This document shows, piece after piece, positions 14,229 to 52,706 of a stretch of 64,000 nt of DNA (position 1 is its first letter; every line of letters begins with the position of its first letter). The notes beneath the pieces were generated by a model. It was given only the letters and a program-made list of their open reading frames with translations. It had not been told where the DNA came from and ran no database searches. The stretch covers positions 96,001 to 160,000 of the forward strand of contig JBBRSP010000004.1 of NCBI GenBank assembly GCA_038245295.1. The letters are read 5' to 3'. Source of the DNA: Candidatus Binatia bacterium. GTDB lineage: Bacteria; Desulfobacterota; Binatia; HRBIN30. A program made the position numbers and the translations under genes.

Positions 14229-14526
14229 CACACGTCATTCCTCGCTCGAACGCGACCCGATCTGTCAGCGATACGCACCGTCAGACGTGTCGGGCTTGTC
14301 CGCCAACCGCATCAAATACACTGGAATATCAACCCATTTCGCATCGCATTACGAGATCACGCGAGCGTTTTCGGGCACACGGGTCTGAGCGCTAGGATAC
14401 GGCATCGGTGAACCTTCGACGTGCGCGGCACGCCCAGGCAAGCCGAGAAGATTTTGGAGGCAGGAGGCAATCAATGAGGAATTCGTGGTGGCTGCGTCGG
14501 GGTTTGCTCGTACGGATCGCTCTGGT

Positions 14527-14600
14527 TCAGATTCCGGAGCCGCCGTCGAACATGTCGTCGCGCACCGGCGCCTGGCTGATCGAGCTGCCGGGCGGGACGC
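14527..14600 (-). pseudogene. cysE: C-terminal remnant of a serine O-acetyltransferase
   Basis: [27 protein letters not shown] resembles the CysE/EpsC-type C-terminus; lies directly after the cysK fragment in a different frame. Confidence 0.6.
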
Positions 14601-14603
14601 GGA

Positions 14604-14897
14604 GAACTGCTGCAAGAGAACATACTTCCGCGGGTCGGAGGCAACAATCGATTCGGCCTTGGCGATGGCGCCGCTCATGCCGCGCGCCCCCTCCGTCAGC
14701 ACCAACTTGGCGCCGTAGGCGACGAGCAACTTTCGCCGCTCGACGCACATCGTATCCGGCATGGTCAGGGTGATCGGATAGACGCGCGCGGCGGCCACGA
14801 AAGCGAGTGCAATGCCGGTATTACCGCTGGTCGGCTCGACGAGCTCCTTACCGGGGCCAAGCAAACCGCGGCGCTCGGCATCCCACACCATGGCCGC
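14604..14897 (-). pseudogene. cysK: Internal fragment of cysteine synthase A
   Basis: [38 protein letters not shown]...[18 protein letters not shown]...LLQQF; lacks the PLP-lysine segment and the C-terminal half. Confidence 0.9.
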
Positions 14898-15119
14898 GCA
14901 CAGGTTGACGAACGCGAAAGGCCATTCGCGCGTGTCGTCCATCACCCAACTCCAGGCGTCGACAAATTCCGGGATGTCATGCCGGTGCGGCGATTCACGA
15001 TGACGTAGAACACAGGCAACGGCATCGTCGAGCACGGCAAAGGCCAGGCGGTGCGCCGGCGAACTCTTGGTCTGCGCCGACGCGGCCAGTTGTGCCGGCA
15101 GCGTGGCGACATCTTCCAT
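14898..15119 (-). pseudogene. Truncated conserved hypothetical protein fused in frame to 'cysK
   Basis: [11 protein letters not shown]...W...[12 protein letters not shown] motif, cut at the final Cys. Confidence 0.5.
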
Positions 15120-15173
15120 CTCGGGCTCGCGCCGACGCTTGCAAGGCGATGTTGCCGGCGCGGCCGCAGCCCG

Positions 15174-15251
15174 CAACGACTGGCGCAACTTGACGGCGCC
15201 GATCTCGGGCCCGAGCGCCGCGGTGAGTGGGGTGATCGAAAGTGAGCTCAT
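15174..15251 (-). pseudogene. N-terminal remnant of a TauD/TfdA dioxygenase
   Basis: [26 protein letters not shown] resembles the TauD N-terminus (PLT.ALGAEI.GVDL.QPL); RBS GAAGGA. Confidence 0.6.
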
Positions 15252-15363: not shown

Positions 15364-15468
15364 TTACTCGGGCAACGCTCTCGCGGCTCCAATCACGCTG
15401 CGGCTAATCTCGAGGCGGGTCGCGACTTCCCAGTCGATGGGTCGCAGCAGTTCAAATCGGTTGGTCAT
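15364..15468 (-). CDS. 34-aa ORF, first RBS-bearing ORF after the attenuator (probably truncated)
   Basis: Strong RBS AAGGAGA then [38 protein letters not shown]. Confidence 0.4.
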
Positions 15469-15532
15469 TTGTCTCTCCTTCAGTCGTCGCAGCTCCATGT
15501 CGGCAGCGACCGCGGCACAGGCGCCACGGCCA

Positions 15533-15570
15533 AAATGGAAAGGCCCGGGAGCAGAGACTCCCGGGCCTTT
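15533..15570 (-). terminator. Intrinsic terminator (3:4 hairpin) of the putative Cys attenuator
   Basis: AAAGGCCCGGGAG-TCTCTG-CTCCCGGGCCTTT then CCATTTT. Confidence 0.8.
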
Positions 15571-15594
15571 AGAATTGCGATGATGAGTTCGAGA

Positions 15595-15705
15595 CTACGA
15601 AGAGGCGAGACCGAACGCGGCGCAATCCAGGGCTCGGGAGGACTCCCAGGCCTTGGTACAACAGCAGCAGCAGTTGATGCGCACAGCGTTCACGAGCGGC
15701 TGCAT
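15595..15705 (-). CDS. Poly-cysteine leader peptide (attenuator uORF)
   Basis: MQPLVNAVRINCCCCCTKAWESSRALDCAAFGLASS; Cys codons at 15658-15672; alternative leaderless GTG start at 15693. Confidence 0.75.
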   Translation of the reverse strand: MQPLVNAVRINCCCCCTKAWESSRALDCAAFGLASS

Positions 15706-15729
15706 CCGAAAACGAAGGTCGCGTGTCAA
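15701..15729 (-). promoter_or_regulatory. Candidate sigma70 promoter of the leader
   Basis: TTGACA (15729-15724), 17-nt spacer, weak -10 GATGCA. Confidence 0.45.
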
Positions 15730-15876
15730 TATCGTCTGGCGTGACTCGACAACAAATCTCGCAAGGGAGTGGCCGCTTCTGTCGGGCAGGGGCGCGGGCG
15801 CGGGCAAGAAAACACACCGTTCCCCTTGGCAGGTTCGCGCGCTTGCCCTTGCCCGACGCAGTCGGAACGCATCCGG

Positions 15877-51056: not shown

Positions 51057-52706
51057 ATGAGAAAGCAGCTCGAGGGAATCATTCAACGTGCTCTGGCCAA
51101 GTGCATTCAGACTGGCCAATTGAAGGAGCAAGACCTACCACCGATCGTCCTGGAAATTCCCAAGGACCCGGCTCTTGGCGATCTAGCTACGCCGATCGCG
51201 ATGGGTATGGCGCGCGAACAGCGCAAAGCACCGCGGGTCATCGCCGAGGCGATTGTCGGCAATTTCGTCGATGAGGATGGCTACGTCGCCAGCACGGAAA
51301 TTGCCGGCCCCGGCTACATCAACGTTCGATTATCGCAACGCTTCTGGAGTCAGTGCCTAACCGACATCGAAGGTACCGACTTTGGCCGTATCGAGCTTGG
51401 CGGCGGCAAACGTGTCATGGTCGAGTTCGTCAGCGCCAATCCCACGGGCCCCCTGACGGTGGGCCACGGTCGCAACGCCGTTCTGGGTGATGCCATCGCC
51501 CGCCTTTTTGAGGCGGCCGGCTATGACGTGACCCGCGAATACTACTTCAACAACGCCGGGCGGCAGATGAAGATGCTCGGCGAGTCGGTGCGGTCGCGAT
51601 ACCTTGAGCAGCTCGGGTTGCCGACAACGTTTCCCGAGGATGGCTACCAGGGGGCTTATATCCGTGACATCGCCGCCGCGCTGATCACCGAACATGGCGA
51701 CAAGTTGCGCGATCAGCCGGCCGAAGGCCCCTTCAAGGATGCCGGCGAACGGGAGATCTTCAAAGACATCGAGCGCACCCTGGGTCGCATGGCGATTCAC
51801 TTCGACGTCTACTTCAACGAGGACACACTGTACTCCGGTGGTCAGGTGAAGAGTGTACTCGAAGATCTGCGTGCCAAGGACCTCGCCTTCGATCAAGACG
51901 GCGCCGTGTGGATGCGCGGCGAGGCGCTTGGGCTCGGCAAGGACCGCGTGCTGGTGAAATCGAGCGGTGAACCCGCCTATCGCCTGCCGGACATCGCCTA
52001 TCACTGCAACAAGTTCGGCCGTAACTTCGACAAGATCGTCGACGTATTGGGAGCCGACCATATCGCCGAGCACGAAGACGTGCGGGCCGCCTTGCGAGCC
52101 CTGGGCTTCGATGTCGAGCGCCTCAAAGCCATCATCTACCAGTTCGTCACGCTGACGCGCGGCGGTGAGCAGGTAAAAATGTCGACGCGGCGGGCCGAAT
52201 ATGTGACCGTCGACGAGTTGTTGGACGAAGTCGGCACCGACGCGGTGCGTTTTTTCTTCCTGACGCGCAAGTCGGATAGTCACCTCGAGTTCGACCTCGA
52301 GCTGGCCAAGAAACAATCCGCCGACAACCCGGTCTTCTACGTTCAATACGCCCACGCCAGGGTTTGCAGCATGTTCCGCAAAGCCGCCGAGGCGGGCGTT
52401 CAGCGTCTGCCGGCGGGGCAATCACACCTCGATACCCTGAGTGCGCCCGAAGAGGTCGCTGTCGTCAAGCTGCTGGCGCAGTATACCGACGAGGTCGAAG
52501 AGGCGGCTTTGCTCATCGAGCCGCACCGCGTGGTTTTCCACCTGATCGAGCTCGCCAGTGAGTTTCATCGATTCTACAATCGACACCGGGTCCTCACCGA
52601 GGACACCGAGCGAACCCAGGCTCGCCTCTATCTGACGTGGGCCGTGGGCGAGGTTTTGAAGAAGGGACTGTCGTTGCTCGGGGTCAGCGCCCCAGAAACG
52701 ATGTAG
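51057..52706 (+). CDS. argS: Arginine--tRNA ligase
   Basis: EFVSANPTGPL.VGHGR, KMSTR, YVQYAHAR. Confidence 0.96.
   Translation: MRKQLEGIIQRALAKCIQTGQLKEQDLPPIVLEIPKDPALGDLATPIAMGMAREQRKAPRVIAEAIVGNFVDEDGYVASTEIAGPGYINVRLSQRFWSQCLTDIEGTDFGRIELGGGKRVMVEFVSANPTGPLTVGHGRNAVLGDAIARLFEAAGYDVTREYYFNNAGRQMKMLGESVRSRYLEQLGLPTTFPEDGYQGAYIRDIAAALITEHGDKLRDQPAEGPFKDAGEREIFKDIERTLGRMAIHFDVYFNEDTLYSGGQVKSVLEDLRAKDLAFDQDGAVWMRGEALGLGKDRVLVKSSGEPAYRLPDIAYHCNKFGRNFDKIVDVLGADHIAEHEDVRAALRALGFDVERLKAIIYQFVTLTRGGEQVKMSTRRAEYVTVDELLDEVGTDAVRFFFLTRKSDSHLEFDLELAKKQSADNPVFYVQYAHARVCSMFRKAAEAGVQRLPAGQSHLDTLSAPEEVAVVKLLAQYTDEVEEAALLIEPHRVVFHLIELASEFHRFYNRHRVLTEDTERTQARLYLTWAVGEVLKKGLSLLGVSAPETM

Follow-up and report, generated by a model that had tools for sequence, protein, structure and literature searches.

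A short element on the minus strand of the window, by which is meant the whole 64,000-nucleotide stretch analysed (positions 96,001 to 160,000 of contig JBBRSP010000004.1, Candidatus Binatia bacterium), belongs to a family of leaders that very probably act as ribosome-operated transcription attenuators sensing charged tRNA-Cys. The window copy would be an intact leader in front of a decayed cysK-cysE operon, and the probability of this reading is put at about 0.87. With the window copy included, 82 copies from 61 genomes were analysed; they come from its own class (Binatia) and from six Acidobacteriota genomes. The features expected of an attenuator were found computationally: a leader open reading frame (ORF) with cognate codons, an intrinsic terminator before the first gene, an exclusive and covarying antiterminator, and a geometry suited to stalling. 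The anatomy, conservation, gene association and covariation are read from the sequences themselves, and the family constitutes a putative multi-operon cysteine regulon. The parts of the window copy and the genes behind it are listed in Table 1.

Table 1. Parts of the window leader and of the broken genes behind it (positions within the window)
Feature	Position	Strand	Basis or remark
-35 hexamer TTGACA	15724..15729	minus	sequence; TTGAC at the same distance in 72/82 family members
Putative weak -10 hexamer GATGCA	15701..15706	minus	spacer of 17 bp; second base A, shared with 63/72 homologues
Leader ORF, GTG start 15693, 32 codons, stop TAG 15597-15595	15595..15693	minus	no Shine–Dalgarno sequence
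5′ arm pairing with 15627-15613 when ribosome-free; extends the 1:2 hairpin over the start codon	15676..15691	minus	minimum free energy fold
Five tandem Cys codons (putative sensor), 3 TGC + 2 TGT	15658..15672	minus	sequence
Segment 1; partner is segment 2; 3′ half also able to pair with segment 4	15643..15654	minus	folding and alignment
Segment 2; partner is segment 1 or 3	15631..15640	minus	2:3 covariation
Inner stem-loop extending the 2:3 antiterminator	15572..15628	minus	predicted: 15628-15621 with 15579-15572; 15616-15612 with 15591-15587
Segment 3, terminator 5′ arm	15558..15567	minus	sequence and alignment
Segment 4, terminator 3′ arm	15542..15551	minus	3:4 covariation
U-rich tail, 7/10 U	15532..15541	minus	sequence; interrupted
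34-codon ORF, Shine–Dalgarno-like site, no family	15364..15468	minus	Pfam search
300-codon mosaic ORF: TauD-like piece (~24 residues), small-family domain, CysK piece	14349..15251	minus	TauD-like piece comes first
Domain of a small multicopy family	~15128-14874	minus	inside the mosaic ORF
CysK residues 48-147, 72%	14903-14604	minus	inside the mosaic ORF
Last 23 codons of cysE, 74%, out of frame right behind the CysK piece	14530..14598	minus	internal deletion of the cysK-cysE operon

A preliminary description of this DNA had placed the TTGACA, the GTG at 15693, five Cys codons, segments 1 and 2 and the hairpin on the minus strand, and all of them lie where it put them. The predicted terminator hairpin (15570-15539) comprises 14 pairs at -27.1 kcal/mol, and the fold of the whole leader has a z-score of -4.5, with none of 200 shuffles equally stable. 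Segment 2 does pair with segment 3 at nine of ten positions, giving a duplex of -15.8 kcal/mol vs -22.7 for 3:4, and segment 1 is a near-duplicate of segment 3, as described. The frame holding the Cys run closes at the TAG stop; the proposed MQPL start was rejected, as this ATG, four codons further upstream, falls within the putative -10 hexamer and it is the GTG that aligns with the ATG of the homologues. This GTG lies 7 nt past the putative -10, and the promoter spacing suggests a leader ORF that is leaderless or nearly so from its putative start site. A consensus scan of the window for promoters and terminators detected neither the promoter nor the terminator of the leader, because the -10 hexamer matches the consensus badly and other bases break up the U tail. 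It is only the homologues that argue for a promoter and a terminator in the window copy. Upstream, after a GTPase gene, there is an inverted repeat (15780-15860) with a 17-21 nt piece that occurs on several contigs and is REP-like.

The genes behind the window copy are broken. The remnants reported earlier as cysK and cysE were recovered; the one called tauD amounts to some 24 residues with weak scores, its best PDB matches being two taurine dioxygenases at E 0.21 and 0.71. Between the TauD-like and CysK pieces lies a domain, absent from the preliminary description, of a small unnamed family that has no Pfam entry, falls in Atlas clusters that are mostly Binatota, and has at least five paralogues in the same genome. 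This family recurs behind Cys leaders in five loci (window 15128-14874; L223:558-947; L014, L234 and L242). A quickly built tree joins the window copy to two leaders that stand ahead of intact cysK-cysE, with a support of 0.83. These observations fit a leader that has stayed whole while the cysK-cysE operon behind it decayed, and since cysK-cysE downstream is deleted, the window copy may be vestigial.

The reading that the family is real and the window copy a non-functional relic of the decayed operon falls somewhat short of an even chance, and at the level of the family it is compatible with the main explanation. The downstream genes are fragments joined by deletion, while intact cysK and cysE genes are found elsewhere in the genome without a leader. 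The -10 hexamer begins with G, as it does in 13/72 homologues, and the U tail is interrupted. Against a relic, no part of the leader is damaged, its score is 147 bits (although it was itself among the seeds of the model), its predicted antiterminator is among the strongest, and the mosaic ORF has stayed open for 300 codons. The intact regulated operon of this genome is on another contig (C33) and not in the window.

As a query, the DNA of the leader matched 11 of 61 genomes, including a second place in its own. A covariance model was built from 17 copies; it includes the Cys columns and begins 4 nt 5′ of the start codon, so the promoter is unscored by it. Within the order, full-length matches at E 1e-7 or better occur in 26/51 genomes with G044 left out, the larger order-level tally of 39/52 taking in terminator-only matches. 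In the sample of the class, 41/151 genomes were matched and 40 hold a Cys leader, and among the Acidobacteriota, the phylum of a matching Vicinamibacterales record (L090), the figures are nine and six of 151. Two other records with the element, L033 and L081, bear the names Candidatus Binatia and Candidatus Binatus. With a wider model (R2), the phyla of G343 and G344 gave only terminator-like matches without Cys leaders (6/151 and 4/151), and in the phylum of G337 only 2/151 genomes matched, at the same places as the class members G054 and G059. Among 151 genomes of Pseudomonadota the model detected none with a Cys-bearing copy, no full Cys-bearing match was identified in the single genomes of ten other loci, and Rfam gave only chance-level matches to the leader (best E 0.29).

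The 82 copies were kept from 94 parsed matches, in which G044 was never included. Those dropped were two without a start codon, six weak ones without Cys codons, one without a parsable U tail (G018) and three aromatic leaders. Each leader of the family has one to eight Cys codons, and at least two stand ahead of segment 1 in 79/82. Genomes carry up to four copies; the genome of the window has only two, the window copy and that on C33, both ahead of sulfur genes or their remnants. At L176 (G004:C62:23435-24212), two Cys attenuators occur in tandem, about 600 nt apart, 5′ of cysK-cysE, and this contig bears four copies inside 19 kb. In two family members (G030:C24:4048-4212 and G111:C412:2346-2502) the leader ORF continues into the terminator, and these are possibly decayed copies. 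The preliminary description had let its proposal depend on conservation of the Cys run and stems in homologous loci; the run, the spacing, the promoter, the stop and all three helices are kept. The short poly-Cys ORFs that it had proposed to look for upstream of sulfur genes in relatives do exist, with 62 of the 82 copies placed before such genes.

The leader ORF is flanked by constant signals. TTGAC is found at the promoter distance in the members counted in Table 1, vs a background of 139/20000, and in all 72 promoter-bearing members the start codon lies 6-13 nt past the putative -10. A Shine–Dalgarno-like motif is seen in only 5/82, and this spacing points to family leaders that are leaderless or nearly so, counted from the putative start site. 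The first in-frame stop falls 22-48 nt ahead of segment 3 in 80/82 members, vs 13 and 11 for the other two frames, and ORF indels in the seed alignment are multiples of three. The U tail has at least seven U in ten positions in 77/82. Among the 119 matches listed for a pattern that itself held no Cys codons, six combined a U tail of at least 7 with TTGAC on the upstream side, and in every one of the six the slot was occupied by Cys codons.

The covariation of the stems, proposed earlier as a check, was followed in a sequence-only alignment of the 82 copies with 500 shuffled controls, and compensatory changes in 2:3 and 3:4 exceed the shuffles. The terminator helix 3:4 is paired in 791/816 cells (96.9%), with 20 two-sided changes vs 3.4 in shuffles. 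The antiterminator helix 2:3 is paired in 667/814 cells (81.9%) with 12 two-sided changes vs 4.2 +/- 1.7, a level reached by 0/500 shuffles, and 1:2 is paired in 80.8% of cells with 15 vs 9.3 (18/500 shuffles as high); the sequences of the family are related, and shuffle-based counts of this kind overstate significance. The two-sided changes in 2:3 lie in separate branches of the tree (G000 C33; G004/G022/G024; G062 C66; G007; G062 C46; G153). In a cognate test, a copy’s own segment 2 pairs better than a foreign one in 30 of the 33 copies with a variant segment 3. A model-fitted alignment agrees on 1:2 and 3:4. For the two inner helices, column-wise covariation is weak or absent (25/500 and 163/500 shuffles as high), and in 66/82 members the pairing of cognate arms exceeds that with foreign arms; the 5′ end pairs better with its cognate mid-leader arm in 63/82.

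The choice of codons bears on what is sensed. It could be that the ribosome stalls through the nascent peptide, or through a ligand in its tunnel such as free cysteine, redox state or a metal, and not through tRNA charging. The residues after the Cys run do look conserved in close relatives. However, this conservation tracks the RNA helix, and distant members vary the residues freely while keeping the pairing. The leaders also prefer TGT to TGC (233 vs 52) against the usage of long ORFs in the genome of the window (6214 vs 13458). TGT is the wobble codon of the two, and being read by wobble would make it the more sensitive to starvation. Finally, three weaker matches carry runs of F, W and Y codons in the same slot ahead of DAHP synthase (G036:C8:1205-1363, G054:C2:374349-374501 and G145:C101:46143-46298; L179, L237 and L239), and have strong predicted antiterminators. 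Codon identity therefore follows the pathway, and these leaders are possibly aromatic amino-acid attenuators built by recoding the same scaffold. An arrest peptide is accordingly given very little weight.

The genes found downstream are predominantly those of sulfur metabolism. In the tblastn set, sbp/cysT, cysK or tauE-cysH-sat lies within 1.5 kb downstream in 62/82 members; the other 20, three of which have less than 250 nt of sequence, lack a sulfur gene by this measure. The copy on C33 precedes an intact sbp-cysT-cysW/cysA-porin series, and an unbroken cysK-cysE pair stands behind the leader in G004, G025, G062, G095 and G174. Genes behind the other 20 include selD, a Cys/Met PLP enzyme cluster, a rhodanese-domain gene, porins, an ABC transporter and an unnamed small protein family; cysS is not among the downstream genes identified for the family. 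In G051 (L012:1473-2954), the Cys leader stands immediately 5′ of selD, which encodes selenophosphate synthetase. In G095 (L219:96-2513), a gene resembling type 2A encapsulins follows the leader, cysK and cysE. Several class members have ORFs of 55-70 codons with a common basic motif between the terminator and sbp or cysK (e.g., L253:573-752 and L219:3796-3963), and these short ORFs matched no Pfam family.

An independent small gene for a Cys-rich peptide or small RNA, closed by a constitutive terminator and followed by genes with promoters of their own, would show the same order of promoter, ORF and terminator, and the terminator is indeed the equilibrium fold. Nevertheless, the leader is always oriented into the sulfur operon, at a median distance of less than 100 nt in most loci, with the first gene beginning tens to hundreds of bases past the terminator. 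A terminator that acts constitutively would have no use for a 2:3 helix that covaries, and the peptide is poorly conserved beyond the Cys run, which makes a separate gene improbable. Lastly, duplication of a GC-rich hairpin or repeat next to a chance Cys run might account for the likeness among segments 1 to 4, as the near-duplicate segments 1 and 3 and the 74 occurrences of TGY runs of at least four, in any frame, in the same genome would allow. This is refuted by the homologue set: the genome has just two copies, both ahead of sulfur genes, and the element is conserved throughout the class and in another phylum, with indels that keep the frame.

The mechanism proposed for the attenuator is as follows; the start site, translation, stalling and termination are steps that we infer. 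A sigma70-type promoter would start the RNA at the leader start codon or a few bases 5′ of it. When cysteine is plentiful, the ribosome would pass the Cys codons onto segment 2 and proceed to the stop, about 27 nt ahead of segment 3. Segment 3 would then be free to pair with segment 4, and RNA polymerase would stop at the U tail. With no ribosome loaded, 1:2 and its 5′ extension would fold, and the terminator would form too. When Cys-tRNA is short, the ribosome would stall on the Cys run and block 1:2, and segment 3 would be bound by segment 2 and the inner stem while segment 4 had yet to be transcribed. Segment 4, in the prediction, then pairs with the 3′ half of segment 1, which is left exposed, so that the polymerase would read into the sulfur genes. 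On this model, the genes are most likely turned on only when cysteine runs short.

The switch itself was computed. A first folding measure, the probability of segment 3 pairing upstream, was uninformative, as shuffles scored 0.65, and it was replaced by energy measures. With a ribosome mask sliding along the leader, the median energy of segment 3 capture is near -6 kcal/mol at first, reaches -7.7 when the mask is on the last Cys codon and peaks at -11.2 two codons later; from four codons on it collapses to between -2 and -5 and is low up to the stop. In this profile, which depends on the assumed footprint and kinetics, the stall position frees segment 2 and later positions cover it. Taking the best of three footprints, which were chosen after the profile was seen, the median capture of the family is -11.7 kcal/mol (median z -1.79) vs -6.3 for 39 hairpin terminators of the window’s genome, the window element being among the 39. 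By this measure 38/82 members beat all 20 of their shuffles, and the window copy, at -16.5 with 0/20 shuffles, ranks among the strongest predicted antiterminators. With the +13 mask alone, capture is slightly better than in shuffles (median z -0.59). Near position 51371 of G000:C6, on the minus strand, another terminator 5′ arm has a perfect upstream complement with a capture of -22 kcal/mol and a short ORF nearby; it is a possible further switch, before a small helix-turn-helix-like ORF.

In equilibrium folding with the stall mask, the completed terminator is the favored structure in 81/82 members, or 75/82 by a later energy measure, and read-through must therefore be kinetic. When 6 nt of segment 4 have been made, the terminator is predicted to have nucleated in 17/82 members if a ribosome is stalled (footprint of 13 nt, counted from the A site), in 55 if there is no ribosome and in 79 if one has reached the stop. 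The window copy gives 0.00, 0.99 and 1.00 for these three states. Longer footprints of +16 and +19 have a weaker effect, with 45/82 and 50/82 terminated at 6 nt despite the stall. If the footprint has the size seen in toeprints, the mask reaches no further than the 5′ half of segment 1, and the unmasked 3′ half is predicted to pair with segment 4 atop 2:3. The earlier idea that a stall masks segment 1 and lets 2:3 form thus holds in the co-transcriptional computation, with the qualifications that half of the segment is masked and that equilibrium favors the terminator.

A more specific reading is advanced tentatively, the odds lying slightly against it as a whole. It describes a regulon of leaderless, terminator-type Cys attenuators with up to four per genome and one tandem case, extending to selD and methionine genes, in which, by a four-way design, the half of segment 1 that the stalled ribosome leaves free acts as a decoy capturing segment 4, and in which aromatic codons have replaced those for Cys on the scaffold that serves DAHP synthase. 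The 82 natural variants of fixed geometry open the coupling of leaderless initiation to termination control, and the predicted 1:4 decoy, to reporter tests. The family also marks sulfur-regulated genes, including unknown ones, in an uncultured class.

Control of sulfur amino-acid genes by terminator and antiterminator is found in the Cys T-box and S-box leaders of Firmicutes, which sense tRNA and SAM, respectively, by RNA structure and without translation. Unlike these, the present leaders keep an open frame and have no Rfam match. They resemble the trpL/hisL type in having a short upstream ORF with a run of cognate codons, exclusive 1:2, 2:3 and 3:4 pairings and an intrinsic terminator before a biosynthetic or uptake operon. 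The mechanism of the classical attenuators (trpL, hisL, thrL, leuL, pheL and ilv) is summarized in Figure 1 of bioRxiv 10.1101/834739. In contrast to them, the family is predicted to sense cysteine, is leaderless by promoter spacing, has about 18-20 codons after the sensor run, possesses segments 1 and 3 so nearly identical that 1:4 can form, and serves several operons per genome. The principle of attenuation is textbook knowledge; the family itself appears undescribed. No literature on Binatota together with attenuators and no description of the family were found in a search with subscription journals largely outside its scope, nor did the literature searched hold an experimentally shown Cys attenuator with an intrinsic terminator. 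The sections consulted of PMC11109978, PMC6429828, PMC2965389 and PMC4833913 contain nothing on cysteine leaders.

Two groups of Cys leaders come closest. For uORFC-8-2, Brewer et al. 2021 (PMC8632094) predicted a tandem-Cys upstream ORF with an intrinsic terminator and proposed read-through at low Cys-tRNA. It occurs exclusively 5′ of cysS in Rhodobacterales, and its two Cys codons are at positions 14-15, within the first of two stems. The preliminary description knew of no terminator-type Cys attenuator in this Gram-negative lineage; none was found for Binatota in the literature searched, and uORFC-8-2 is a predicted one in another Gram-negative group. Compared by description, it shares with the family the tandem Cys upstream ORF, the terminator and a Gram-negative host, and differs in that the pertinent part of PMC8632094 describes no antiterminator and cysS is its only target, whereas the family precedes sbp-cysTWA, cysK-cysE and tauE-cysH-sat.

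The second group, the mycobacterial leaderless poly-Cys short ORFs or “Cys ribulon” (Canestrari et al., bioRxiv 10.1101/834739), likewise precedes several sulfur and cysteine operons and uses a ribosome stall as the sensor, as is proposed for the present family. Control in that account is translational, through a hidden Shine–Dalgarno sequence, with termination excluded at the tested locus, and Seliverstov et al. 2005 (PMC1262725), in the portion on actinobacterial cys leaders, report no conserved terminator. In its relevant text, PMC13236596 still calls the mycobacterial case translational; PMC13402693 calls it transcriptional attenuation, with no terminator shown in the relevant text. The family differs in having a covarying terminator and antiterminator at its core and not Shine–Dalgarno pairing. 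Judged by these features, the leaders appear to belong to neither known Cys-leader family. As far as the cited parts of these sources go, the mycobacterial leaders act on translation, and that of Rhodobacterales has been predicted solely ahead of cysS; hence the interest of a terminator-type family.
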